DNA of 45,421 bases from Alphaproteobacteria bacterium (GTDB lineage: Bacteria; Pseudomonadota; Alphaproteobacteria; Rhodospirillales; 2-02-FULL-58-16). Under the pieces are notes generated by a model. That model searched no databases and had not been told where the DNA came from. It saw only the letters and a program-made list of their open reading frames with translations. Below, one piece after another: positions 5,918-45,005 of this stretch (position 1 is the first letter of the stretch; each line of letters starts with the position of its first letter). Made by a program: the position numbers and the translations under genes. Location of the stretch: NCBI GenBank assembly GCA_024278615.1, contig JAJRSS010000254.1, positions 1 to 45,421 of the forward strand, read 5' to 3'.

Positions 5918-6271
5918 ATGGATATTCAAAGAATTGAGGAAAACGCCCGGCGGGCCAGCACCCTGCTAAAGTCGATGAGCAACCAGCACCGGCTGATGAT
6001 CCTTTGCCAATTGGTCCCCGGGGAAAAATGTGTCGGCAACCTTGAAAAAATCATCGGACTTAGCCAATCGGCTTTGTCCCAGCACCTGGCCAGGTTGCGC
6101 CGTGACGGGTTGGTATCCACCCGCCGCTCGGCGCAGACCATTTTTTATTCCTTGGCCGGTGAAGAAGCCAGTTCGGTCATTGAAACCATTTATGGCCTAT
6201 ACTGCGGTAGCAAGGCCACCATCACCTATGACAAGGACTCCGACGCTCCCAGGACCGCCAGCGTCGGCTGA
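5918..6271 (+). CDS. ArsR/SmtB-family transcriptional repressor, BigR/SqrR-like (persulfide-sensing type)
   Basis: 117 aa. Winged HTH: HRLMILCQLVPGEKCVGNLEKIIGLSQSALSQHLARLRRDGLVSTRR. Cys residues sit in LMILCQL and in the C-terminal GLYCGSK, which is where the BigR/SqrR redox Cys pair lies. It is directly upstream of a persulfide dioxygenase-rhodanese gene. Confidence 0.85.
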   Translation: MDIQRIEENARRASTLLKSMSNQHRLMILCQLVPGEKCVGNLEKIIGLSQSALSQHLARLRRDGLVSTRRSAQTIFYSLAGEEASSVIETIYGLYCGSKATITYDKDSDAPRTASVG

Positions 6272-6380
6272 CGCCATTGGCGCCGGCCCCATTCGGCCGG
6301 CCGCGAATTTTTCCATCTCTCTTTGGCTGCATCCTTTGGCTGCATCTCTTTGGCGGCGGGGCCGCTGGAAAAGGCCATCC

Positions 6381-7433
6381 ATGATCTTCCGCCAGTTGTT
6401 CGACAGTATTTCGTGTACCTATACCTACCTGCTGGCCAGCCGCACAGGTGGCGAGGCGCTGATTATCGATCCGGTGTTGGACAACATCGACCGATACACC
6501 CAACTCCTGGGCGAACTTGACCTAAAACTGGCGAAGGCCGTGGACACCCATGTCCACGCCGATCACATCACCGCGCTGGGCGCCCTTCGCGACCGCACAC
6601 GCTGCGTTACCGTGATGGGCCGCCGCAGCCAGGTCGACCGGGTATCCATGCGGGTGGAAGAAGGCGATACCATCGATATCGAAGGCATTTCCCTTAACGT
6701 GATCCATACGCCCGGCCATACGGATGATTCCTATTGCTTCAGCCTGCCCGACCGGGTCTTTACCGGCGATACCCTTTTGATCCGCGGCACGGGCAGGACC
6801 GATTTTCAAAATGGCAGTCCAGCCGACGCCTACAATTCCATTTTTATAAAATTGCTTACCCTGCCAGACGAAACTTTCGTCTATCCCGGGCACGACTACA
6901 AAGGGAATACCGTCAGCACCATCGGCGAGGAAAGGGCTCATAACCCGAGGCTTCAGGTAAAAAGCGCCGATGAATATGCCGAAATCATGAACAATCTCGA
7001 TCTGCCCAATCCCAGATTGATGGATATCGCCGTACCGGCGAACCTGTCCATTGGCTTCGCCCAGGAAGACGAAACATTAAGAAAGGCGACCGTTTCCGCT
7101 ACTGAGGCTGTCAGTGAAATTGAAAGCCCCGATACCCTGTTCGTCGATCTTCGTGAAGATAGCGAACGGGCCAAGGCCGGCGTTATCGCGGGATCGGTTC
7201 ATGTCCCCTACCAAAGACTTGACGAACATATCCGTCCCGGCGGCGCCTTCCACGCCATGATCGCCCAATCGGCGAAAAAACCCCTTCTCTATTGCGCCTT
7301 CGGCGAGCGTTCGGCCCTGGCCCTAAAAGCCATGGGCGAAACAGGGATCAGCAACGTCCGTCATCTGGACGGCGGAATAGACGGGTGGATAAAAGCCGGC
7401 GGCAAGGTGGAGTTTATTAAGACAAAACCCTGA
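6381..7433 (+). CDS. MBL-fold persulfide dioxygenase fused to a C-terminal rhodanese domain (PRF/Blh-like)
   Basis: Track ORF 6030..7433 was trimmed to the in-frame ATG at 6381 (MIFRQLFDSISCTYTYLL, a typical ETHE1-like N-terminus). The upstream 117 codons overlap the ArsR gene. Metal motif THVHADHI, plus HTPGHT and FTGDTLL. Rhodanese active-site loop YCAFGERS. Confidence 0.85.
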   Translation: MIFRQLFDSISCTYTYLLASRTGGEALIIDPVLDNIDRYTQLLGELDLKLAKAVDTHVHADHITALGALRDRTRCVTVMGRRSQVDRVSMRVEEGDTIDIEGISLNVIHTPGHTDDSYCFSLPDRVFTGDTLLIRGTGRTDFQNGSPADAYNSIFIKLLTLPDETFVYPGHDYKGNTVSTIGEERAHNPRLQVKSADEYAEIMNNLDLPNPRLMDIAVPANLSIGFAQEDETLRKATVSATEAVSEIESPDTLFVDLREDSERAKAGVIAGSVHVPYQRLDEHIRPGGAFHAMIAQSAKKPLLYCAFGERSALALKAMGETGISNVRHLDGGIDGWIKAGGKVEFIKTKP

Positions 7434-20868: not shown

Positions 20869-21570
20869 ATGCTGGATAGACTTGGACTGACCAAAAAGGG
20901 CCTGGATGCGGCGCTCATGGTCAAGGAAGACTATCGGATGCACCGTCCAATCTGCCTCCCCGGCGAAGAAACGCCGCGAATCCTGGCGCCGGAGAACCTG
21001 CTGAGCAAGGGCATGGATCTCAAGGGGTTGGAAGATCCCCTGGCTCTCGCCATGATGGCTTCGCGGGATCCTGAATTTCCCATGGCGCTTGCCGCCGTCG
21101 CCCGATTAAGTCCCATGGGCAATCAGACCAAGCTGGTTTCAGAAGTAATCAATATGGTCGGTGAAACCACCCGGCATGAAGTGGTTCGCAAATGCGTCGG
21201 TCTGGTCAAGGAGTCAGCGTTTAATCCGCGGGCCATTGACGTGGTCAGGGTCCATACATCGCGCTTTATCCTCCGCACGCGGACCCAGTACACGACGGCC
21301 CTGCGGCAAAACCTTGAAGGACTTTTGGAGGGGAGCATTGCCCCCCGGGTATTTGTTAACGATTTCTTTGAACTGACCGAGGCTGGTAATATTCGCAGCC
21401 AGATTCGGGAGAAGATGGTGGTGGGCCTGCTGCTGTCAAAAACAATCCGGCCCAGTATCAAGTTCCTGATTCTCGAAAATTTTCACCGTTTTTCCAGGCC
21501 TATCCGCCGCGCCGTTGTTTCCAAAATCATGCAGGCAAAGCCCGGCCATCATGTGGATATGGTCAAATAG
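20869..21570 (+). CDS. Hypothetical protein, 233 aa, no recognisable family
   Basis: ORF preceded by GAGGTG 5 nt upstream of the ATG. No transmembrane or signal features are evident. It lies in a visibly AT-richer stretch. Confidence 0.55.
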   Translation: MLDRLGLTKKGLDAALMVKEDYRMHRPICLPGEETPRILAPENLLSKGMDLKGLEDPLALAMMASRDPEFPMALAAVARLSPMGNQTKLVSEVINMVGETTRHEVVRKCVGLVKESAFNPRAIDVVRVHTSRFILRTRTQYTTALRQNLEGLLEGSIAPRVFVNDFFELTEAGNIRSQIREKMVVGLLLSKTIRPSIKFLILENFHRFSRPIRRAVVSKIMQAKPGHHVDMVK

Positions 21571-30730: not shown

Positions 30731-31425
30731 GCACCGACGCTCAACTGCCCCTGGAATTTAATCACCGGCCGGCCCTATCCGGAGATGATTTCCTGGTCGC
30801 GCCGGGCAATCGCGATGCGGTGAACTGGCTGGACCGGTGGCCCGGATGGCCGGCCCCGGGACTGGCCATATACGGGCCCGCCGGATGCGGCAAGACTCAT
30901 TTGGCGCAGGTATTCATGGCGGCTTCGGGATCCTTGGCCCTGGCCCGCGAAGACCTGGCCAGCAAAGACCCGGCGGGTAGCGGCCTTCCCTACATTCCGG
31001 CGGAAATCGACGCTTTCGTCATCGAAGATACTGAAGACCTGATCGCCGGCGGTTTGGAAGAAGCGCTTTTGCATCTTTACAACCATATCGCCGAAACCGG
31101 CCGCCATTTGCTGCTTTCCGCCAGGCAGCCGCCGTCCCGTTGGGCAGTCACCCTGCCCGACCTGCGCTCTCGGCTGAACGCCGTGCCAACGGTGGAGATA
31201 CGTCCACCCGACGATACGTTGATGTCGGCGGTGCTGGTCAAGCTGTTCGCCGACCGCCAGTTACGGGTGGACGCGGACGTAGTACCGTTTATGAGCGTCC
31301 GCATGGAACGGTCCTTCGCCGCGGCACGCGATCTGGTTTCCATCATAGACCGGGCGGCCCTGGAAAAGCACCGCAATATCACCGTTCCCCTGGTTCGCCA
31401 GGTGCTCAACGAAACGCAATCCTGA
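30727..31425 (+). CDS. hdaA: DnaA regulatory inactivator HdaA
   Basis: 232 aa: QLPLEF, short N-terminus, Walker A-like GPAGCGKTHL. DnaA domain III-like but lacking a DNA-binding domain. The TTG start overlaps the upstream stop (TTGA). Confidence 0.85.
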   Translation: MSTDAQLPLEFNHRPALSGDDFLVAPGNRDAVNWLDRWPGWPAPGLAIYGPAGCGKTHLAQVFMAASGSLALAREDLASKDPAGSGLPYIPAEIDAFVIEDTEDLIAGGLEEALLHLYNHIAETGRHLLLSARQPPSRWAVTLPDLRSRLNAVPTVEIRPPDDTLMSAVLVKLFADRQLRVDADVVPFMSVRMERSFAAARDLVSIIDRAALEKHRNITVPLVRQVLNETQS

Positions 31426-31443
31426 ACCCCAAGGAGGATAAAT

Positions 31444-32223
31444 ATGGATTTAGGCATCAATGGAAAAAAAGCATTGGTCTGCGCCGCCAGCAAGGGCCTG
31501 GGACGAGCCTGCGCTACGTCCCTGGCCCGGGAGGGAGCAGCGGTCACTATCGTCGCCCGAAACCCGGAACCCCTTAAGGCCGCCGCCGCCGATATCCGCG
31601 CCGCCACCGGTTCTGAGGTCGCCACCGTGGCCGCCGACATCGCCACCGAAGAGGGCCGGGTCAAGGCGTTGGCCGCCTGCCCCGAACCGGACATCCTGAT
31701 CAACAACGCCGGCGGCCCCCCGCCGGGGGATTTCCGCGACTGGGACCGGGACGACTGGATCGCCGCCCTGGACGCCAACATGCTGACCGCCATCTTCCTG
31801 GTCAAGGCGACCGTGGACGGCATGATCGGACGCAAATTCGGCCGCATTGTGAATATCACTTCGGGCGCGGTGAAGGCGCCGATTGAAATCCTCGGGCTTT
31901 CCAACGGCGCACGGTGCGGGTTGACCGGTTTCATGGCCGGCCTCGCCCGCAAGACCGTGCGTCATAACGTAACCATCAACAACCTGCTGCCCGGCCCCTT
32001 CGATACCGACCGGCTTAAAGTCACCATGCAGGCGGCGGCGACAAAGTCCGGGCGGGACCTTGCGGATATCGCCGCCGAACGGGCGGCGGCCAATCCGGCC
32101 GGGCGGTTCGGCGACCCGGCGGAATTCGGCGACGCCTGCGCCTACCTGTGCAGCGCCCAGGCGGGATACGTGACAGGACAGAATTTCCTCCTGGACGGCG
32201 GTTCATACCCAGGAACATTTTGA
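31444..32223 (+). CDS. SDR-family oxidoreductase
   Basis: 259 aa. Rossmann motif ALVCAASKGLGRA, NNAG, and LSNGARCGLTGFMAGLARK in place of the classical YxxxK segment. Confidence 0.88.
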   Translation: MDLGINGKKALVCAASKGLGRACATSLAREGAAVTIVARNPEPLKAAAADIRAATGSEVATVAADIATEEGRVKALAACPEPDILINNAGGPPPGDFRDWDRDDWIAALDANMLTAIFLVKATVDGMIGRKFGRIVNITSGAVKAPIEILGLSNGARCGLTGFMAGLARKTVRHNVTINNLLPGPFDTDRLKVTMQAAATKSGRDLADIAAERAAANPAGRFGDPAEFGDACAYLCSAQAGYVTGQNFLLDGGSYPGTF

Positions 32224-33779: not shown

Positions 33780-34253
33780 GTGTTGAATCAAGTTCTGCTC
33801 CTGTTCGGGTTTACCGAACTGACCTACATGATTGGTGTCGTTTGCATGTTGACCCTGCTGGGAAATTTTCTCGGTGGCTTGCTTCACGGTATCCTGCTTG
33901 CCTACGGGGGGCCCATCAAACCGCGCAAGTTGTTCGACCGCATGTCCGTTCGCATGAGCATAGCATCGGAATTGTTCATCTTATCTTTTGCCCTTTACTA
34001 CCACATCATGCTGATCGAAGACTTGGTAATCGCTCATTTAGTGTATTGGGCCTTCGCCCTGCTGGCGGGGCCCATACTGGCTTTCATCGGCTCACAGATC
34101 ACCCACCTGATATTCGCTAAAAAAATTGAAGCCAACGAAAAAGCATATAAGGATTGGGTCAAGTTTAAGCGCGGCCAAAAAGCGGAGAAACATTTAAGAA
34201 AGAAAGCCTCGCCGGCGTTGCGGAGCACCCGTTCTTTCGACCCTTCCACCTGA
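33780..34253 (+). CDS. Hypothetical membrane protein with basic C-terminal tail
   Basis: 157 aa with about four hydrophobic helices (LLLFGFTELTYMIGVVCMLTLLGNFLGGLL; LVYWAFALLAGPILAFIG) and a Lys-rich tail. Visibly AT-richer than neighbouring genes. Start codon uncertain (GTG/TTG). Confidence 0.5.
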   Translation: MLNQVLLLFGFTELTYMIGVVCMLTLLGNFLGGLLHGILLAYGGPIKPRKLFDRMSVRMSIASELFILSFALYYHIMLIEDLVIAHLVYWAFALLAGPILAFIGSQITHLIFAKKIEANEKAYKDWVKFKRGQKAEKHLRKKASPALRSTRSFDPST

Positions 34254-36422: not shown

Positions 36423-37424
36423 TTACGCGGACGGGGAGCCGTTGGAGGAGGTTGATGGCGCTTCGTTCTTCAGGGCTGCAGTTTCCTTGGCATCGCGGGT
36501 GGCCAGCCAGATGGCGCCACCGGGGAGACTGACCGCCAGGGTAACGAAGCCGAAAAGCAAGGACAGCACCAGGGCTTCTTCCCCCGGCACACCGATCAGG
36601 CCGAAAGCAACGACCATGGCCTTTTCGCGCACCCCCCAACCGGCAATGGAAATCGGTATGGTGGTGATGAGGAGTACCGGTGGGATCAAGGCCATGCAAT
36701 CGACCAGAGTCACATTGATTCCGAGACTGACAGCAAGAAGGAACACGCCGAAGGAGACATTGATATGGCCAAGCAGGGACCAGCCCAGCATGGCCGCCGT
36801 CTTGCGCGGCGACAGGAAAGCCCGGCGGGTGTCGGCGGCCATCACCGCCAATCCCCGCACGAGTCGCCAGTGGGATAGGGACCGAGGCAATCGGTCCAGA
36901 ACCATAAGCAGCCCAAGCCCCCCTACTCCGCCGGCGGCAAGAATAGCAATCGTTGGGAGAATCCAGGCACTTTGCCCAGGCTCGATCCGGGACTGGATTA
37001 TCGGCTGGGTGGCCGCCATCACAATGACAAGGGCAAGTACCGTCGCCACCCGTTCCAGGAAGACGCCGTTGATGGCGGCGCTCATGGTCAGGCCGGACCG
37101 GTAGGCCTTGTAGATGCGGATCGCATCGCCGCCCACCGAAGACGGCAAAGTCTGATTAAAGAAAATGCCGATGTAATAAATACGGATGGAATTGATGAAG
37201 GAAAGGGGCGAGCCGATAGCGGCCAGCGCCGCAAGCCAGCGCATGTTGGCCAAGCCTATCTGAAAGATGAATACGGCCAGCGCCAGAATGATCATCAAGG
37301 GCGAGGCTTCAAGAACACTATTCCACGCCTTGGCGATATCCATTTTGTCATCGGCAAGCAAAGACCAGATGAGACCCACAGATACGGTGATCTTGAAGGC
37401 TATGGAAAGCCACTTTTTGAGCAT
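36423..37424 (-). CDS. UPF0104 / lysylphosphatidylglycerol-synthase-like transmembrane (flippase-like) domain protein
   Basis: 333 aa, polytopic. It has the family-typical segment IRIYYIGIFFNQTLPSSVGGDAIRIYK. Confidence 0.8.
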   Translation of the reverse strand: MLKKWLSIAFKITVSVGLIWSLLADDKMDIAKAWNSVLEASPLMIILALAVFIFQIGLANMRWLAALAAIGSPLSFINSIRIYYIGIFFNQTLPSSVGGDAIRIYKAYRSGLTMSAAINGVFLERVATVLALVIVMAATQPIIQSRIEPGQSAWILPTIAILAAGGVGGLGLLMVLDRLPRSLSHWRLVRGLAVMAADTRRAFLSPRKTAAMLGWSLLGHINVSFGVFLLAVSLGINVTLVDCMALIPPVLLITTIPISIAGWGVREKAMVVAFGLIGVPGEEALVLSLLFGFVTLAVSLPGGAIWLATRDAKETAALKNEAPSTSSNGSPSA

Positions 37425-37538
37425 ATAGGGACCGCTGCATGTTTTGAAAACAGCCCGTGTTTATCAGGTTACTATGGCCCTGTCACGGCAAGGTCCGCAG
37501 GGAATCACTCAGAATCACGCCAAATATCAGGCCAAGAA

Positions 37539-38648
37539 TCAGACGGTGGCGGCCGTGATGCGCACCGGCTGGCGCTTGCGGCCCCAGTCCCCGGGAGGAC
37601 CGTCGAACACTCCCGCACAGGCGGCGCCGCATTTGGCGCAAGCACCGTCACCGGTCAGGTTCCAGGCGCCCAGTTCGTACCAGTCGCGGACAATCAGCGC
37701 CTCGCCGCACTGGTGGCAGAAGGTGGTATCCCCCTCGGCGTCGTGCACGTTGCCGGTGTAGGCATAGCGGACGCCGTTGTTGATGGCTGTTCGCCGGGCC
37801 CGGGCCAGGGTCGCCTTGGGAGTCGCTGGAATGTTCATCATCTTCCAATCGGGATGGAAGGCGGAAAAATGCATGGGCACATCGGGGCCCAGTTTTTCAA
37901 CCACCCACTGGGTCATTTCCCGCAGTTCGCCCTCGGAATCGTTTTCGCCGGGGATCAGCAGGTTGGTAATCTCCAGCCAGGTCTGCGTTTCGTGCTTGAT
38001 ATAGGCGAGTGTCTCCAGCACCTGATCCAGGTGGCCAGAGCACAGCCGCCGGTAGAAATCCTCGGTAAAACATTTCAGGTCGACGTTGGCGGCGTCCATG
38101 TGGCGGAAGAATTCAACCCGGGGTTCCGGGCAGATATATCCGGCGGTCACCGCCACGGTCCTGATTCCCCGTTCCCGGCAGGCCTGGGCCGTGTCGATGG
38201 CGTATTCGAGGAAGATCACCGGGTCGTTGTAGGTGAAGGCGACGCTGCGGCAACCCAGGTCCTGGGCGGTGCGGGCGATGGCTTCCGGCGAGGCCTGCGA
38301 AGCCAGGGTATCGAATTGCCTGGACTTGCTGATGTCATAATTCTGGCAGAACTTGCAGGTCAGGTTGCACCCCGCCGTGCCGAAAGACAGGATGGGCGTC
38401 CCCGGCAGGAAATGGTTGAGGGGCTTTTTTTCCACCGGATCGATACAGAAACCGCTGGACCGGCCATAGGTGGTGAGGACGATTTCATCGTTTTCGCAGG
38501 CGCGGACGAAACACAGGCCCCGCTGGCCGTTCCTGAGCTTACAGAACCGGGGGCACAAGTCGCACCGCACCCGCCCGTCATCCAGGGTGTGCCAATAACG
38601 GCCCACAACGGCGCCGGGGAAGGTTTCCGGCGGTAACTGATGGTTCAT
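37539..38648 (-). CDS. amrS: AmmeMemoRadiSam system radical SAM enzyme
   Basis: 369 aa. N-terminal Cys cluster RCDLCPRFCKL...GLCFVR. Radical-SAM motif CNLTCKFCQN. GFCIDPVEKKPL. C-terminal Cys-rich segment CHQCGE...CAKCGAAC. The layout matches the AmmeMemoRadiSam radical-SAM family, and the Memo/AMMECR1 partners lie 3 kb away. Confidence 0.88.
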   Translation of the reverse strand: MNHQLPPETFPGAVVGRYWHTLDDGRVRCDLCPRFCKLRNGQRGLCFVRACENDEIVLTTYGRSSGFCIDPVEKKPLNHFLPGTPILSFGTAGCNLTCKFCQNYDISKSRQFDTLASQASPEAIARTAQDLGCRSVAFTYNDPVIFLEYAIDTAQACRERGIRTVAVTAGYICPEPRVEFFRHMDAANVDLKCFTEDFYRRLCSGHLDQVLETLAYIKHETQTWLEITNLLIPGENDSEGELREMTQWVVEKLGPDVPMHFSAFHPDWKMMNIPATPKATLARARRTAINNGVRYAYTGNVHDAEGDTTFCHQCGEALIVRDWYELGAWNLTGDGACAKCGAACAGVFDGPPGDWGRKRQPVRITAATV

Positions 38649-38729
38649 AGTAAAGAGGTAGGCCCGGTGGTGCCGGCAGTCAATGCGCGGCGGCGCCTTG
38701 TTTCCCTTTCCCGGGCAGGTGTGCCGGCT

Positions 38730-40163
38730 TTATAGAATTTCCGCCGCCCTGAGTTCCTGAACGAAATCGCTCAGCGCCCCCTGCAACCGGCGCAACAATT
38801 CGCCGCATTCATCTTCGGTGATGGTCAATGGCGGCGCGACGATAAACCAATAGCCGTATTTTCCTCCGGAAGCGGGCCGCGAATAGATCATCAGGCCATT
38901 GCGCAAGCCATGCAGTCGAATTTTGTCGGCGGGCTTTATGTGGTGTGGCAACGGGGTCTTGGTTTCCCTGTCCGCCACCAGTTCAACCGCCATCAGCATT
39001 CCCAGCCCGCGAACATCGCCGACAATGGGAATGTCTGGCCGCATGGCTTCGAGACCGGCACGCAACGTCGCGCCCCGTTCCGCAGCCCGGGTGACCAGGT
39101 CTTGGCGGTCAACCTCATCGAGAACGGCCATCCCCGCGGCGCAGGAAACCGGATTGGCGTTGTAGGAATACTGGAACTCAAAGCCGGTCAGACCGGCAAG
39201 TTCATCAACCAAATTCGCCGGCGCGAGCATGGCGCCCAGGGGGCAGTAACCGGACGCCAGTCCCTTCGCCATGGTGACGATATCGGGCAGCGAATCGGGC
39301 CAATGATGGGCGGCGAGGAATTTTCCCGTCCGCCCGAAACCACAGAGGATTTCGTCGAATACGAGATGAACCCCATACCCGCTACAGATTTCCCGAATGC
39401 TGTGGACATATTCCGCCGGCGGCACCACGCAACCGGTGGAAAGACCGCCAATCGGTTCGATGACGAACGCCAGTACGTTTTTCGCCCCAAGATCCCGGAT
39501 CTTGCGGTCAAGAGCATCGGCGCAATGGCGGGCATAGCCTTGAGCATCGTGGTTTTCCGGTAGACGGTAGCTCAAGGGCGCGGGAATTTTCTCGGACATC
39601 ACCGCGAAGCCGTCGAGAAACGGCGCCATCATCACTTCGCCGTTTATTCCCAGCATTGAAATGGTGGCGCCGTGATAGGACGGCTGACAGCTAATGATTT
39701 TGCTTTTCGAAGGCTTGCCGGTGGCGACGGCGTGCTGGCGAAGAAACTTGATCGCGTTTTCCATTGATTCGCTGCCGCCCGAGGTCAGGCTGGCGCGTTC
39801 GAATCCCGGCCCGGCCAAACTGCAGAGACGCGCGGCGTAATCCCTGTTGGCGCAATTTCTGGCCAGCCGGGCGAAGGCGTATTCAACGGTTTTCGCCTGT
39901 GCCGCCATGGCGTCCGCCACCCGTGCATTGCCATGGCCGATGGTGCTGACCACGGGCCCGGAAGAAACGTCCATATATTCGTTGCCGTCTTCGTCCCACA
40001 TATAAACCCCCGAGGCCCGCTCGATCATCGGCAAGGGTACGAAGTTGCTCCTGGCGTAATAGACGTCCTGCGTCCCGCCGGGCAAAGGAAAGGCTGCCTT
40101 GAGAGCATGCTCCGGATCGGTGCCGCTCAAACCTGCGTTCATTGTATTGATTTCCATTTCCAA
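38730..40163 (-). CDS. Class-III (omega-type) PLP-dependent aminotransferase
   Basis: 477 aa. SGGSESMENAIK, FVIEPIGG, DEILCGFGRTG, and the catalytic Lys context TMAKGLASGY. The track start is a TTG; ATGs two and seven codons downstream are alternatives. Confidence 0.9.
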   Translation of the reverse strand: MEMEINTMNAGLSGTDPEHALKAAFPLPGGTQDVYYARSNFVPLPMIERASGVYMWDEDGNEYMDVSSGPVVSTIGHGNARVADAMAAQAKTVEYAFARLARNCANRDYAARLCSLAGPGFERASLTSGGSESMENAIKFLRQHAVATGKPSKSKIISCQPSYHGATISMLGINGEVMMAPFLDGFAVMSEKIPAPLSYRLPENHDAQGYARHCADALDRKIRDLGAKNVLAFVIEPIGGLSTGCVVPPAEYVHSIREICSGYGVHLVFDEILCGFGRTGKFLAAHHWPDSLPDIVTMAKGLASGYCPLGAMLAPANLVDELAGLTGFEFQYSYNANPVSCAAGMAVLDEVDRQDLVTRAAERGATLRAGLEAMRPDIPIVGDVRGLGMLMAVELVADRETKTPLPHHIKPADKIRLHGLRNGLMIYSRPASGGKYGYWFIVAPPLTITEDECGELLRRLQGALSDFVQELRAAEIL

Positions 40164-40225
40164 AATTGCACTAATTATATTCGTATTGTTGACGCAGTAA
40201 TTGAGTCAATGTATTTATTGTACTC

Positions 40226-41614
40226 ATGACAATATGGACGCCCCGGATCACCGGAAGAGCCGGCCCCCGCTACTTGGCCATCGCCGAGAGGATCGCCGAA
40301 AGCATCGCCAGCGGCGATCTCGCCGACGGCGCCAGGCTGCCGCCGCAACGGGACCTCGCCCATGCACTGGGGCTGTCGCTCAGCACCGTGACCCGTGCCT
40401 ATGCCGAGGCCGAACGCCGTGGCCTGGTTTACGGCGAGGTGGGACGCGGCACCTACGTCGGCGGCAGCGGCCCGGCGGATATTTCCATGCTGTTCCACCC
40501 CCGCACCGATGGCGGGATGATCGACATGACAATGAACCTGCCGGCGCCCGGCGACGGATCGGCGATACTGGCGCGAACCCTCACCCGCCTGAGTCAGAGC
40601 GCCGCGCTGGAAACCATACTAGACTATCGGTCCATCGGCGACGGCGATGCCCACGCCGAAGCCGGCGCCGCCTGGATTGGCCGGCTGGGCCTGGAAATTC
40701 CAGGAAGCGAGGTGGTCCTAACCATCGGCGCCCAGCACGGCATCATGGTCAGCCTGATGGCGACCAGCCGCCCCGGTGATCTGATCCTGGCGGAATGCCT
40801 TTCCTATCCGCCCCTGAAGCAAATCGCGCAGCGTCTCAATTTGAAACTGCACCCGGTAGACATGGACGGGCACGGCCTGCTGCCCGAGGCCCTGGATACC
40901 GCCTGCCGTACGACTCCGGCAAGGGTGCTTTACTGCATGCCGACCCTGCACAGCCCGACGGCGGCGACCATACCCGACGATAGGCGGCGCCAAATCGCCA
41001 AGGTCGCCCGGCGGCATGACCTCACCATCATCGAAGACGACGTCTTCGGCTTCCTGCCTGAAGCACGGCCGCTTCCACTGAGCGCAATCGCGCCCGAACG
41101 CAGCCTGCTGGTCACCAGCGTTTCCAAAAGTCTCGCCCCGTGGCTGCGGGTCGGCTACGTCCGTGCGCCGGACAACGTTCGCGATGCGATCCGCGCCGCC
41201 GTCCATATGTCGTGCGGAATGCAACCGCCGTTGATGGCCGAGATCGCCCGGCAGTGGATTTCCGATGGCACGGCCGACCGCATGAGCGCCTGGCAGCGCG
41301 AAGAGGCGAAGGCACGCCAGGCAATCGCGCGCCGGATACTCGGACGCTTTCCCTACCACGCCGATCCGTTCGGCTTGCACGTCTGGCTGCCGTTGCCGGA
41401 ACCCTGGCGCACCGAACCCTTCCGCATGGAGGCCGAACGGCGCGGTGTCAAAGTGCTGAGCGGAGATATCTTTGCGGTGGGCAAAACTCCGGCGCCCCAG
41501 GCCATCCGCCTGGCCCTGGGCCGCGAAGCGGGGCAAGAGCGAGTGATCGCCGGTCTGAAAATCGTCGCCGGTCTGCTCGGCGGCAGGGAAAGCCCAGGTC
41601 TTTCAGTGGTATGA
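40226..41614 (+). CDS. MocR/GabR-type regulator (GntR wHTH fused to an aminotransferase-fold domain)
   Basis: 462 aa. wHTH LPPQRDLAHALGLSLSTVTRAYAEAERRGLVYGEVGRGTYV. Fold-type-I domain with Lys context SVSKSLAPWLRVGY. It is divergent from the aminotransferase gene across a 62-nt spacer. Confidence 0.9.
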   Translation: MTIWTPRITGRAGPRYLAIAERIAESIASGDLADGARLPPQRDLAHALGLSLSTVTRAYAEAERRGLVYGEVGRGTYVGGSGPADISMLFHPRTDGGMIDMTMNLPAPGDGSAILARTLTRLSQSAALETILDYRSIGDGDAHAEAGAAWIGRLGLEIPGSEVVLTIGAQHGIMVSLMATSRPGDLILAECLSYPPLKQIAQRLNLKLHPVDMDGHGLLPEALDTACRTTPARVLYCMPTLHSPTAATIPDDRRRQIAKVARRHDLTIIEDDVFGFLPEARPLPLSAIAPERSLLVTSVSKSLAPWLRVGYVRAPDNVRDAIRAAVHMSCGMQPPLMAEIARQWISDGTADRMSAWQREEAKARQAIARRILGRFPYHADPFGLHVWLPLPEPWRTEPFRMEAERRGVKVLSGDIFAVGKTPAPQAIRLALGREAGQERVIAGLKIVAGLLGGRESPGLSVV

Positions 41615-41693
41615 TGGGGGGGGTGATCAACCCTACCGCCGCTCCCTTTACAGACGCCGGGCCGAAGACTAAATAATCCGCAGGACGTGGAAC

Positions 41694-43178
41694 ATGGCTT
41701 CAACACCTACAACCATCAGACCAGCCGCCGTCGCCGGCAGTTTCTATCCCGGTAAGGCCGCCGAGTTGGAGGGCTCGGTGCGGGGGATGCTGGAGGATGC
41801 CAAAGTAGCGGACACCCCGACTATCCCCAAGGCGATGATCGTCCCCCATGCCGGGTATGTCTATTCCGGACCGGTGGCGGCGACCGCCTTCGCCCGCATC
41901 CTGCCCGCCGCCGACACCATCTCCCGGATTATTCTGTTGGGCCCCTGCCACCGGGTGGCGGTGGGCGGGCTGGCGGTGAGCGGCGCCGATTATTTTTCGA
42001 CGCCTTTGGGGCGCGTGCCCGTGGACCCCGTCTTGCGGGAACAAGCGCTGGCCCTGTCCCAGGTTCGGGTGTTCGACGAACCTCATGCCCAGGAGCACAG
42101 CCTGGAAGTGCACCTGCCGTTCCTGCAGGTGGCGCTGAAGGAATTTACCCTGGTCCCCCTGGTGGTGGGACAGGCGACGAACGAAGAAGTAGCCCAGGTG
42201 ATCGATGCCCTGTGGGGCGGACCGGAAACCCTGATCGTGGTCAGTTCGGATCTCAGCCACTACCTGGATTACGATCAGGCCAAACGGTTGGACAGCGCCA
42301 CCTGCGAGGCCATAGAAGACCTGGACCCGGGTCGCATAGACCATGATCAGGCCTGCGGGCGCATTCCCGTGGGCGGCCTTTTGACGAGCGCCAAGCGCCG
42401 GGGCATGGAAGCGGTGACCCTGGACTTGCGCAATTCGGGCGACACGGCGGGTCCCCGCAGCCAGGTGGTGGGCTATGGCGCCTGGGTGTTTACCGAAAAA
42501 GCATCTTCCAGGGGACGGGCCTCCGCACCGGTGCGAAGGGAAGAAGGAAGTGCTAAAGACGAAGACGGTTTCGGCGCTGAAACCCGCGCCCTGTTGGACC
42601 GTCATGGGGTTACCCTGCTGCATGTGGCGGCGGCGTCCATCGAACACGGGTTGAATTCCGGCCAGGCGCTCGCCGTAAACCCGGCTGACCACGCGGATGA
42701 CCTGGGCGAAGACGGCGCCTGTTTCGTCACCCTGAAACGCAAGGGACAGCTTAGGGGATGCATCGGCTCGGCCCAGGCCCACCGGCCCCTGGTGGTGGAC
42801 GTGGCCGGCAACGGATTTGCCGCGGCCTTCAACGATACCCGGTTTGCCAAACTGACCGCCGGGGAAACGGAGGGCCTGCGGCTGTCCATATCCGTGTTGA
42901 GCGCCGCCGCCGAAATATCCTTCCGGGACGAGGCCGACCTTCTGGACCAGCTTCGCCCGGGCGCCGACGGGCTGATCATCGAGGATCGCCAATGCCGCTC
43001 CCTGTTCCTGCCAGCGGTGTGGGATTCCCTGCCCGACGCGAGGCAGTTCCTGGGCCACCTGAAGGCCAAGGCCGGATTGGCCGCCGATCACTGGTCAACC
43101 GGGTTCAGGGCCTGGCGCTTTATCGCCGAGGAAATTTCCACCGATTACCTGGACGATCCGCAATCGGTGTGGCGCTGA
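41694..43178 (+). CDS. AmmeMemoRadiSam system protein B (Memo-like) fused to protein A (AMMECR1 domain)
   Basis: 494 aa. Memo part: AGSFYPG, PHAGYVYSGP, LGPCH, EHSLEVHLPFLQ, SSDLSHY. Charged linker at about aa 268-296. AMMECR1 part: GACFVTLKRKGQLRGCIGS, SISVLS, SLFLPAVW. Confidence 0.9.
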   Translation: MASTPTTIRPAAVAGSFYPGKAAELEGSVRGMLEDAKVADTPTIPKAMIVPHAGYVYSGPVAATAFARILPAADTISRIILLGPCHRVAVGGLAVSGADYFSTPLGRVPVDPVLREQALALSQVRVFDEPHAQEHSLEVHLPFLQVALKEFTLVPLVVGQATNEEVAQVIDALWGGPETLIVVSSDLSHYLDYDQAKRLDSATCEAIEDLDPGRIDHDQACGRIPVGGLLTSAKRRGMEAVTLDLRNSGDTAGPRSQVVGYGAWVFTEKASSRGRASAPVRREEGSAKDEDGFGAETRALLDRHGVTLLHVAAASIEHGLNSGQALAVNPADHADDLGEDGACFVTLKRKGQLRGCIGSAQAHRPLVVDVAGNGFAAAFNDTRFAKLTAGETEGLRLSISVLSAAAEISFRDEADLLDQLRPGADGLIIEDRQCRSLFLPAVWDSLPDARQFLGHLKAKAGLAADHWSTGFRAWRFIAEEISTDYLDDPQSVWR

Positions 43179-43212
43179 GCCCGTGGTCCGGTTATAAAAC
43201 CCGGCTATACCA

Positions 43213-43839
43213 TTGAACCGGGAGTCTCCCTTGTCCGAAGCACGAACCCTCCTTGAAATGGCTGGTGTTGCGGCGACTCCATCCCGCCTCGCCGACGCGG
43301 CGCTGGTGCTCATCGACTGCCAGATGGAATATGTTTCCGGCGGCCTGGTCCTGCCCGGCGTGGAACCGGCGCTTAAGGAAGCCGCCAAGGTGCTGCAAAA
43401 GGCCCGCAACGCCGGCGCGCCGGTGATTCACGTTGTCCACCACGGCAAGCCGGGCGGCGGCCTGTTCAACCCCGAGGGCGCCGGGTCCGCCATCGCCGCC
43501 GCCGTCGCGCCCGAGGACGGCGAGCCGGTGATCATCAAGGCCTTGCCCAACGCCTTCGCCGGCACCGATCTGGCGCAAAAACTTGAGGCCACGGGACGCA
43601 AGGAAATCATCGTCGTCGGCTTCATGACCCACATGTGCGTCAGTTCCACCATTCGCGCCGCCACCGACCTGGGGTATAAAAGCACGGTGGTGGCCTCCGC
43701 CGCCACCACCCGCGACCTGCCGGATGTACAAGGCGGCCAGGGCGGGGTGGTCAAGGCCGCCGACCTGCACCGGGCCGAGTTGGCCGCCCTTGCCGACCGC
43801 TTCGCCACGGTGGCCGAAAACGCGGATCAAATAACCTGA
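43213..43839 (+). CDS. Isochorismatase-family cysteine hydrolase
   Basis: 208 aa (TTG start per track; an internal ATG at 43258 is possible). LVLIDCQMEY (catalytic Asp context), ALPNAF, VVGFMTHMCVSST (nucleophile Cys). It starts 34 nt after the Memo-AMMECR1 stop. Confidence 0.85.
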   Translation: MNRESPLSEARTLLEMAGVAATPSRLADAALVLIDCQMEYVSGGLVLPGVEPALKEAAKVLQKARNAGAPVIHVVHHGKPGGGLFNPEGAGSAIAAAVAPEDGEPVIIKALPNAFAGTDLAQKLEATGRKEIIVVGFMTHMCVSSTIRAATDLGYKSTVVASAATTRDLPDVQGGQGGVVKAADLHRAELAALADRFATVAENADQIT

Positions 43840-44204
43840 ATTTGCAGGAAACGTCGGTACCCGCCATGGCTGGGTGTGGAACCGGAATTTCAAAATCAAG
43901 CCGAAAATGCCGACAAAGAGCGGATCAAATCGTTTGGCCCAAGTACTCGGCAGATAAGCCCCATTTATTTGTGCGACTGTCCACCATATGATGGTGATAA
44001 TCGCGGATGGGCCGTTATGGGCTGAAAGACCAAAAGAATTGATCTCTGACCGGTCCGGCATGCCGCTACCTGAATTCGGGTTTCCAGAAAATTGGATTAC
44101 CTTTGGCTTCTGGCGCACGAGCTGACGGGATTTTTTTCCAATAAAGTTTTTAACTTCGTTTCATTTGAATTGGACCACATACCGCCAATGAAACTGTCTA
44201 GACA

Positions 44205-45005
44205 ATGACCCTGACCATCACTTCCAAAATGGTCGATACCACCGTCGATATCGCCCGCCGGGCGGGGGCGGAGATCATGAAAATCTACGCCACCGATTTC
44301 GACGTGGAATCCAAAGACGACAAGTCGCCGGTGACCGCCGCCGACCGGGCGGCGGAAACATTGATCACCGATGCCCTGCTCAGTGAAGTCACCGGCGCCT
44401 TTCCCATCGTCGGTGAAGAGGCGGCATCCGCCGGCTACATCCCGGACATCGCGGGGACGCCCTTCTGGCTGGTGGACCCCCTGGACGGGACCAAGGAATT
44501 CATCAAGCGCAATGACGAATTCACCGTCAATATCGCGCTCATCGAAAAAGGCCCGGAAAAAAGGAGGCCGATTTTGGGCGTGGTCTATGCGCCGGCCCGT
44601 GGACTGATGTATTGGGGCAGTCCCCTTGGCGCTTTCCTGCAACGGGATGACGAAAACCCGGCCCCGATCGAGGTCAACCATCCGGCGGGACCCCTGGTGG
44701 TCGCCGCCAGCCGTTCCCACCGCTCGGCCCAATTGGATCAATACATCTCCCAACTGGACGTGAAGAAGGAAATCACCGCCGGCAGTTCCCTGAAATTCTG
44801 CCTGGTGGCGGAAGGAAGGGCGGATATCTATCCCCGGTTGGGCCGCACCATGGAGTGGGATACCGCCGCCGGGCACGGGGTGGTTCGCTTTGCCGGCGGC
44901 CATGTGCGGAAAATGGACGGTGAAGAAATGAGTTACGGCAAACCGGGTTTCGAGAATCCCCATTTCGTCGTCAGCGGTAATAAAATTTGTACCAACTTTT
45001 CTTGA
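44205..45005 (+). CDS. cysQ: 3'(2'),5'-bisphosphate nucleotidase (inositol monophosphatase superfamily)
   Basis: 266 aa: SPVTAADRAAE, WLVDPLDGTKEF, WDTAAGHGV. Confidence 0.88.
   Translation: MTLTITSKMVDTTVDIARRAGAEIMKIYATDFDVESKDDKSPVTAADRAAETLITDALLSEVTGAFPIVGEEAASAGYIPDIAGTPFWLVDPLDGTKEFIKRNDEFTVNIALIEKGPEKRRPILGVVYAPARGLMYWGSPLGAFLQRDDENPAPIEVNHPAGPLVVAASRSHRSAQLDQYISQLDVKKEITAGSSLKFCLVAEGRADIYPRLGRTMEWDTAAGHGVVRFAGGHVRKMDGEEMSYGKPGFENPHFVVSGNKICTNFS

Follow-up and report, generated by a model that had tools for sequence, protein, structure and literature searches.

The AmmeMemoRadiSam genes of the window

We analysed a 45,421-nucleotide (nt) stretch of DNA from a Rhodospirillales genome (contig JAJRSS010000254.1, hereafter the window) that carries the genes of the AmmeMemoRadiSam system, i.e. 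amrS, encoding a radical SAM enzyme, and a single open reading frame (ORF) in which a Memo domain is fused to an AMMECR1 domain. To our knowledge, this system is among the most widespread conserved gene clusters without a known function. The Memo and AMMECR1 domains have relatives in human disease. No assigned function or substrate for the triad was found in the literature searchable by system name, in agreement with the first-pass annotation of this DNA, which had also proposed that all three components are present. This proposal was borne out by model searches, in which every component scored far above its curated cutoff. The amrS product reached 652.1 bits against TIGR04337 (cutoff 220) and covered positions 2-349 of the 349 of the model. 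Within the fusion, residues 9-266 (nt 41718-42491) scored 263.3 bits with the Memo model TIGR04336 (cutoff 26) and residues 307-480 (nt 42612-43133) scored 176.0 bits with the AMMECR1 model TIGR04335 (cutoff 99), the Pfam scores being 168.8 bits (PF01875, Memo) and 137.6 bits (PF01871, AMMECR1). The three accessions, named in the first-pass annotation, were confirmed in NCBIfam.

The translation of amrS contains the cluster motif CNLTCKFC (CX3CX2C) and Cys-rich motifs at its N- and C-terminus. No AmrS structure was found in the PDB, and the nearest solved structure is the distant PFL-activating enzyme 3c8f (E = 1e-6, 31 bits). The two have the radical SAM core and CX3CX2C in common, but AmrS differs by its extra N- and C-terminal Cys-rich regions and by the absence of a glycyl-radical enzyme partner at the window. 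The two halves of the fusion are related at the fold level to human MEMO1 (PDB 7kq8, 3bcz) and to archaeal AMMECR1-like proteins (PDB 1wsc, 1zq7, 1vaj). Alignment of the fusion to MEMO1 and ST0229 showed that the motifs vpHagy, gpcHrv, ssDlsH, aCGr and LRGCIG are all present, the His/His/Asp-His/Cys positions of the MEMO1 metal site aligning in the Memo half and the LRGCIG motif in the AMMECR1 half. Unlike these relatives, the two domains form one polypeptide in the window, and the eukaryotic proteins function in the absence of any radical SAM partner. The identity of the triad is secure because the hidden Markov model scores lie far above the cutoffs and the catalytic motifs are present; the window holds a genuine AmmeMemoRadiSam triad whose catalytic motifs are intact. 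An exact-sequence look-up of the fusion protein returned no database record. The organism lacks a close sequenced relative: AmrS proteins of the genome collection reach at most 75% identity to that of the window, and the closest metagenome scaffold (L125) is ~90% identical at the DNA level.

From what is known of these families, the triad would constitute a pathway of three enzymes that modify a single common substrate of the cell. AmrS, as a PFL-activase-like enzyme, would produce a 5'-deoxyadenosyl radical for hydrogen abstraction, Memo would perform a redox step with its His/His/Asp-His/Cys metal site on an extradiol-dioxygenase-like fold, and AMMECR1 would contribute the conserved cysteine of LRGCIG. 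Memo and AMMECR1 may act jointly because they are frequently fused. The same association of Memo, AMMECR1 and a radical SAM enzyme was reportedly described by Burroughs et al. in 2019 (J Biol Chem 294:10211), where the Memo clade is said to be tentatively tied to nucleotide-base and isoprenoid modification. In contrast to that context, the window adds no conserved nucleotide- or isoprenoid-related partner, the UPF0104 gene next to amrS being merely a clade-level neighbour. The 2019 study is cited in PMC7159879 and PMC7694686.

The features of the locus are listed in Table 1. All six ORFs delimited by the first-pass annotation were recovered with the same coordinates and strands, as were the spacing of 114 nt between amrS and the UPF0104 gene and that of 34 nt between the fusion ORF and the co-directional isochorismatase-family gene. 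Pfam assigned Radical_SAM to AmrS, Memo and AMMECR1 to the fusion, Aminotran_3 to the aminotransferase, GntR and Aminotran_1_2 to the MocR regulator, Isochorismatase to the hydrolase and LPG_synthase_TM to the UPF0104 protein. The triad genes all lie within 5.6 kb and are split by a 3,045-bp gap holding two unrelated genes, the MocR regulator gene on the plus strand and the class-III aminotransferase gene on the minus strand.

Table 1. Features of the triad locus, with coordinates in the window.
Feature	Coordinates	Strand	Basis
UPF0104 / flippase-like membrane protein (LPG_synthase_TM)	36423..37424	-	PF03706 163 bits, TIGR00374 63 bits
amrS, AmmeMemoRadiSam radical SAM enzyme	37539..38648	-	TIGR04337 652.1 bits
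amrS-proximal half of split ancestral intergenic region	38649..38729	-	Sequence reading; kept in L125
Class-III (omega-type) aminotransferase, target gene of the MocR divergon	38730..40163	-	PF00202 268.8 bits
MocR/aminotransferase divergent control region with three operator-like boxes	40141..40233	.	Box conservation in six loci
MocR-subfamily regulator, EhuR-like	40226..41614	+	PF00392 + PF00155
Memo-proximal half of split ancestral intergenic region	41615..41693	+	Sequence reading; conserved element
Fused Memo-AMMECR1 (protein B + protein A), single ORF	41694..43178	+	TIGR04336, TIGR04335
Isochorismatase-family (cysteine hydrolase) gene	43213..43839	+	PF00857 124 bits
cysQ, 3'(2'),5'-bisphosphate nucleotidase	44205..45005	+	TIGR01331 279.4 bits vs cutoff 228.8

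The triad locus in other genomes

A scan of genomes with AmrS gave 80 loci (68-75% identity) from many phyla, in which the ORFs within 6 kb of AmrS were compared. A Memo gene lies beside amrS in 48 of the 80 loci; it is divergent in 45 of these 48, and the gap is at most 400 bp in 39 of the 45. Among the groups with this compact divergent arrangement are Alpha- and Gammaproteobacteria and Planctomycetota. Of the 36 loci in which both Memo and AMMECR1 were detected, 13 have them as a fusion, and each of the 119 best protein-database matches to the fusion of the window (55-66% identity) is a single protein with both Pfam domains. Several of these 119 are annotated "AmmeMemoRadiSam system protein B/protein A", and fusions of this B-A type number hundreds in the databases. 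Neither the divergent orientation nor the Memo-AMMECR1 fusion is unusual, and the first-pass annotation's description of the layout as unusual and rearranged does not hold for either. The window resembles most AmmeMemoRadiSam loci in its clustered, divergent components and differs from them on two counts, namely a bidirectional gap of 3,045 bp instead of the usual ~40-400 bp, which is due to the MocR/aminotransferase pair sitting in it, and the isochorismatase-family gene between the fusion gene and cysQ.

Unbiased clustering of the ORFs within 6 kb of AmrS identified Memo/AMMECR1 as the only broadly conserved neighbours. PepA, HolC, CysQ and UPF0104 were each found in 7-10 loci, all belonging to one Rhodospirillales-type synteny group. 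Searching the same flanks by phmmer with the other neighbours of the window gave no isochorismatase, one distant aminotransferase (3 kb away), one weak helix-turn-helix match to MocR and seven UPF0104 proteins; the MocR partner of the aminotransferase is absent from all 80 AmrS loci. In 32 of the 80 loci (L003-L005, L007, L011-L013, L017, L018, L022, L026-L028, L030 and others), mainly metagenome-assembled genomes labelled Gemmatimonadota, Acidobacteriota/Thermoanaerobaculia, Nitrospirae and Chloroflexota, the AmrS homologue (~70% identity) has neither Memo nor AMMECR1 within the fetched flanks. Two of these, L007 and L013, have a further AmrS-like paralogue (36-37% identity), which lies immediately upstream and is encoded on the other strand.

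The Rhodospirillales synteny group gives the background for the window. In L118, L119, L122, L001 and L008, amrS is followed by the UPF0104 gene, pepA and holC on one strand and is divergent from Memo-AMMECR1 without any gene in between, and in L118, L119 and L122 the fusion gene is then followed by cysQ and sua5. Since cysQ directly adjoins Memo-AMMECR1 in L002, L044, L050, L064, L067, L077, L118 and L122, it is the ancestral downstream neighbour of the fusion gene in this clade.

The MocR-aminotransferase pair and the split intergenic region

The MocR regulator combines a GntR winged helix-turn-helix domain (PF00392, residues 16-78) with an aminotransferase-fold sensor domain (PF00155, residues 135-435). 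It scored 470.3 bits against NF052286, the model of the ectoine-utilisation regulator EhuR, below the cutoff of 480. The aminotransferase satisfies the family model PF00202 and passes the cutoff of no NCBIfam model, the best model being PRK07483 (358 bits for a cutoff of 485); in the PDB, 3i4j matches it best and omega-transaminases come next. MocR regulators are typically arranged in divergons with the genes that they control and repress their own expression (PMC5320631). The pair of the window resembles the divergons of GabR-gabT, TauR and EhuR/EnuR (PMC5320631) by the domain composition of its regulator, by the divergent class-III aminotransferase gene and by repeated operator-like boxes that overlap the regulator start codon. 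It differs from EhuR/EnuR in that the regulator falls under the EhuR cutoff and that no genes for ectoine uptake or catabolism were found among the annotated ORFs of the window, GABA and taurine genes likewise not being found nearby.

A search for relatives of the aminotransferase gave 35 metagenomic loci (56-76% identity), of which seven, L085-L087, L089, L090, L099 and L100, have the divergent MocR partner. None of AmrS, Memo, AMMECR1, isochorismatase and UPF0104 was found near these relatives in the 35 loci, and the four neighbourhoods that were annotated have unrelated flanks (thiD, glmM, gltA, lpxB, SDR, glyoxalase, BrkB). The control region consists of a shared intergenic stretch of 62-83 bp with three operator-like boxes. 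Box 1 is TCAATACAAT (40141-40150), box 2 is an ATTGAC-N11-GTCAA inverted repeat (40189-40210) occurring once in the window for 0.03 expected occurrences, and box 3 is ATTGTCATGAGTACAAT (40217-40233; pattern ATTGTCATG-N-ACAAT), lying over the MocR start codon. All three are kept in six loci whose proteins are 53-71% identical to those of the window, and none was found near the amrS or Memo promoters. The longest ORF of the aminotransferase opens at TTG 40163; because box 1 would then lie inside its first 8 codons and because the orthologue in L125 begins at the homologous ATGAACG, the true start is probably ATG 40142. Since the pair recurs among unrelated genes, its operator is conserved across loci and its boxes are absent from the triad promoters, MocR and the aminotransferase form an autonomous, self-regulated divergon with its own conserved operator.

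On each side of the pair, a leftover piece of intergenic DNA (81 nt on the amrS side, 79 nt on the Memo side) keeps one half of the ancestral region. Promoter-like hexamers were picked by eye and by conservation, and consensus scans of the intergenic gaps for terminators and promoters gave nothing above chance. On the amrS side, TTGACT (38683-38678) is followed after a 17-nt spacer by TACCTC (38660-38655), an arrangement written as GCATTGACT, 17 nt, TACCTC, and the element GCATTGAC matches the compact relatives L001, L008 and L025. On the Memo side, TTTACA (41647-41652), a 17-nt spacer and TAAATA (41670-41675) precede a Shine-Dalgarno sequence AGGA (41682-41685), and TGTAAAGGGAG matches the same three relatives. 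An element TGTAAAGGG(A/G), read as the reverse complement of the Memo-proximal region, is conserved in these three loci and in L125, and the sequence upstream of amrS is also conserved in L125. The amrS gene has no Shine-Dalgarno sequence before its ATG, which lies 6 nt past the -10-like TACCTC (window 38646-38683; L125 ~1275-1320), suggesting that its mRNA may be leaderless or near-leaderless. The amrS leaders of L001 and L008 are ~40 nt long and have GGAG-type ribosome-binding sites. A MAFFT alignment with the sequences upstream of amrS in L001 and L008 that hinted at homology between the -35 region of the window's amrS and the first codons of L001 was rejected as a GC-rich artefact. From these conserved elements, we infer that transcription of the triad genes still starts from promoters of their own, one in each half.

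The history of the insertion could be approached through L125, a 5.2-kb scaffold of a close relative found by a reverse search from the isochorismatase-family gene. In L125, the aminotransferase gene precedes amrS, which is divergent from Memo-AMMECR1 and the isochorismatase-family gene, and MocR is absent. The DNA is 88.7% identical to the window over 37375-40090 and 93.1% over 41639-43950, and the intervening segment 40091-41638 (5' end of the aminotransferase, operator and MocR) is replaced in L125 by 143 nt giving a strong ribosome-binding site. Between the two genomes, the synonymous divergence dS (and the dN/dS ratio of nonsynonymous to synonymous divergence) is 0.14 (0.15) for amrS, 0.12 (0.27) for Memo-AMMECR1, 0.20 (0.16) for the isochorismatase-family gene and 0.59 (0.16) for the aminotransferase, whose proteins are 83% identical and whose synonymous divergence is ~3-5 times that of the flanks. 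Sliding identity (window 38600-40090 against L125 1275-2715) drops from ~96% to ~75-87% exactly at the 5' end of amrS, which points to a recombination boundary or an allelic replacement. Given the aminotransferase dS of 0.59 against 0.12-0.20 in the flanks and this sharp break, the aminotransferase segment appears to be an accessory segment exchanged by recombination, its history being older than that of the flanks and distinct from it, and the enzyme is predicted to be functional in both genomes. The insertion is restricted to the genus-level lineage of the window. It would have arrived as a MocR-plus-aminotransferase unit, L125 losing MocR later, the reverse order being a possible alternative.

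The gap is variable in the clade as a whole, six other Rhodospirillales loci containing 0.6-7.2 kb of different cargo between amrS and Memo. L002 has a 694-residue protein there, L014, L040 and L052 have hypothetical proteins, the gap of L067 is 856 bp and that of L077 spans 7 kb with an ABC transporter, a chromate transporter, a monooxygenase and a TauD-like dioxygenase. In L126, a gene of the lipid A 3'-O-deacylase family LpxR (6348-7415) lies on the opposite strand between the UPF0104 gene and amrS, another sign that the gene junctions of this block accept insertions. The third codon position GC content (GC3) of the inserted genes, 0.69-0.81, lies inside the range of the window (0.63-0.84), so there is no compositional sign of foreign origin. 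A 9-mer, GNAAAGGGA (G(G/T)AAAGGGA), flanks the pair left and right in the same orientation (38703-38711 and 41643-41651); with 5 occurrences in the window for 2.2 expected, it is too weak a sign of an insertion duplication and may be due to chance.

Taken together, we regard it as highly probable that the window contains an ordinary copy of the triad into whose bidirectional promoter gap an autonomous divergon was inserted, the neighbours being lineage-specific and poor guides to the substrate. The ancestral arrangement would have been a conserved Rhodospirillales housekeeping block with amrS, UPF0104, pepA and holC on one side and Memo-AMMECR1, cysQ and, in part, sua5 and further genes on the other. 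Its short bidirectional promoter gap (~40-400 bp in most genomes) would have been invaded by a self-contained divergon made of an EhuR-like MocR, an omega-type class-III aminotransferase and an operator of three boxes belonging to the pair, and each triad gene would have retained the promoter-like half of the former intergenic DNA on its side. The window is thus a further member of a known, still uncharacterised system, and what the first-pass annotation had called a rearranged context is an accessory-gene insertion in a clade-variable gap.

A different possibility is that the insertion captured the regulation of the triad, i.e. that read-through from the MocR-controlled promoters couples triad expression to the amine or amino-acid ligand of MocR without any shared chemistry. 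Both inserted genes point towards the triad genes across gaps of just 81 nt and 79 nt devoid of terminator-like hairpins, and amrS is almost leaderless and has no Shine-Dalgarno sequence, as would suit such coupling. However, ancestral promoter-like elements are kept on both sides, the MocR boxes are absent near these elements, and L125, which has no MocR, keeps the same sequence upstream of amrS. We consider this regulatory capture unlikely, although it fares better than the other alternatives.

Isochorismatase, UPF0104 and the search for a substrate

The isochorismatase-family protein is recognised at the family level, the equivalog models BiuH, RutB, PncA and YcaC all remaining far under their cutoffs. 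No homologue was found near AmrS in any of the 80 genome loci, even by phmmer, and its absence from those 80 loci and from six metagenome loci would suggest a one-off insertion. The reverse search from the isochorismatase contradicts this reading, because homologues (~60-65% identical) lie downstream of Memo-AMMECR1 and co-directional with it in three lineages of the clade. In the window and L125, the gene immediately follows the fusion gene. In L126, Memo-AMMECR1, the isochorismatase-family gene and cysQ follow each other with gaps of 21 and 12 nt, and in L123 and L127-L129 the isochorismatase-family gene comes after genes for GYD, metallo-beta-lactamase-fold (MBL) and cyclophilin-like proteins. 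Comparison of match lists hints at a few further cases. Away from the triad, a 63%-identical homologue on an Azospirillum brasilense plasmid (L130; NZ_CP059451.1, 479165-480748) is divergent from a LysR regulator and has an FAD-binding oxidoreductase and an ABC transporter as neighbours, AmmeMemoRadiSam genes not being found nearby. The linkage of this family to Memo-AMMECR1 is thus recurrent but patchy, non-obligate and of clade level.

The arrays of the third lineage are longer than that of the window. In L127, L128 and L129 (e.g. L127 8112-12038), Memo-AMMECR1 is followed by co-directional genes for GYD, MBL-fold, cyclophilin-like, isochorismatase and CapK_C-domain proteins, an array that may be an extended operon. 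L123 (366-3244) has a similar array, which lacks the MBL-fold gene and is broken by an IS630-like element.

The UPF0104 gene follows amrS in 7 of the 80 AmrS loci, all of the Rhodospirillales type, and additionally in L118, L119 and L122-L124. This adjacency is limited to one Rhodospirillales synteny block, which also carries pepA-holC and where the gene sits between amrS and pepA. In L116/L117 (8917-11476), L120 (3968-6522) and L121 (5939-8455), the UPF0104 gene is directly divergent from Memo-AMMECR1, and amrS is absent at the locus as judged by tblastn (E <= 1e-3). The fusion proteins of these loci are among the closest relatives of that of the window (64-65% identity), so the triad is not always intact at the locus. 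Conversely, in L124 (2815-6969), amrS is followed by UPF0104, pepA and holC, with Memo-AMMECR1 absent upstream and a 655-residue protein without any Pfam hit preceding amrS; in L010 and L029, amrS abuts pepA and UPF0104 is absent. The position of UPF0104 reflects synteny, and obligate coupling is not indicated. The first-pass annotation had seen in this membrane protein a possible hint to the substrate, a suggestion that loses its ground given that the gene is clade-restricted and persists without amrS (L116/L117, L120, L121) or without Memo-AMMECR1 (L124).

The hint that this annotation saw in the neighbourhood would amount to an extended pathway, in which the aminotransferase, the isochorismatase-family protein and UPF0104 would join the triad in a cluster of five or six genes whose substrate bears an amine or amide and is possibly linked to a lipid. 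A tight cluster of aminotransferase, amrS, Memo-AMMECR1 and isochorismatase is indeed common to the window and L125, three lineages have the isochorismatase-family gene after Memo-AMMECR1, at least 10 clade members have UPF0104 after amrS, and the intergenic gaps are short and without terminators. However, none of these genes accompanies the triad beyond one Rhodospirillales clade, and inside it the isochorismatase-family gene is missing in most members and the aminotransferase in all but L125. Moreover, the relatives of the aminotransferase and an isochorismatase homologue are found elsewhere among unrelated genes and beside regulators of their own, UPF0104 is retained where either amrS or Memo-AMMECR1 is missing, and amrS stands beside pepA without UPF0104 in L010 and L029. 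We judge the extended pathway distinctly improbable. The same holds for its narrower form, in which the triad of some Rhodospirillales would have recruited an isochorismatase-family gene co-transcribed after Memo-AMMECR1 and, in the window's genus, an omega-transaminase co-transcribed before amrS to process an amine- or amide-bearing small molecule; if true, this recruitment would offer a first handle for experiments on the AmmeMemoRadiSam substrate. Because none of the neighbours is a conserved triad partner outside the clade, they are not reliable guides to the substrate. The proposal that they would be was contradicted by the lack of linkage in 80 loci of many phyla, and what survives of it is the isochorismatase-family gene in three clade lineages and the aminotransferase in L125. 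Similarly, the co-occurrence comparison suggested in the first-pass annotation indicated that the juxtaposition is non-accidental inside one Rhodospirillales clade but patchy and non-obligate, with no broad linkage.

That the MocR-aminotransferase pair originally stood between amrS and Memo-AMMECR1 and was lost in other lineages is very improbable, since, despite an aminotransferase at the same site in the close relative L125, the compact divergent layout occurs in Alpha- and Gammaproteobacteria, Planctomycetota and other groups, the same cassette, operator included, is found independently at other sites, the pair would have to have been lost precisely and independently dozens of times, and current data suggest that the genomes bearing the insertion form a single shallow branch.

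Several observations nevertheless weigh against the insertion of an unrelated divergon beside an ordinary triad. Purifying selection (dN/dS 0.16) has retained the aminotransferase immediately before amrS in two genomes, and that of L125 has no regulator yet a strong ribosome-binding site. The isochorismatase-family gene is linked to Memo-AMMECR1 in three lineages with gaps down to 21-52 nt. The promoters on both triad sides are read from the sequence, and terminator-like sites are absent between the aminotransferase and amrS and between MocR and Memo-AMMECR1, so read-through coupling could occur. Finally, when an insertion mechanism was sought, no transposon or transposase, target-site duplication, convincing flanking direct or inverted repeats or tRNA was found. 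With insertion still the preferred explanation, the locus is unsuited to inferring the substrate of the triad, for which a truly conserved extra partner would be valuable. One weak lead survives, namely the isochorismatase-family gene recurring after Memo-AMMECR1 in three lineages.

The remainder of the window is ordinary alphaproteobacterial chromosome with aspS, rnd, purM, an RND efflux pump and AsmA. No Rfam family matched anywhere in the window, and no tRNA genes were found in it. Three ORFs (20869-21570, 31077-31952 and 33780-34253) have a coding-like GC3 (0.65-0.78) and no Pfam match at E <= 1e-5. At 6030-7433, unrelated to the triad locus, a single ORF combines metallo-beta-lactamase-fold and rhodanese domains and resembles a persulfide-dioxygenase-type fusion.

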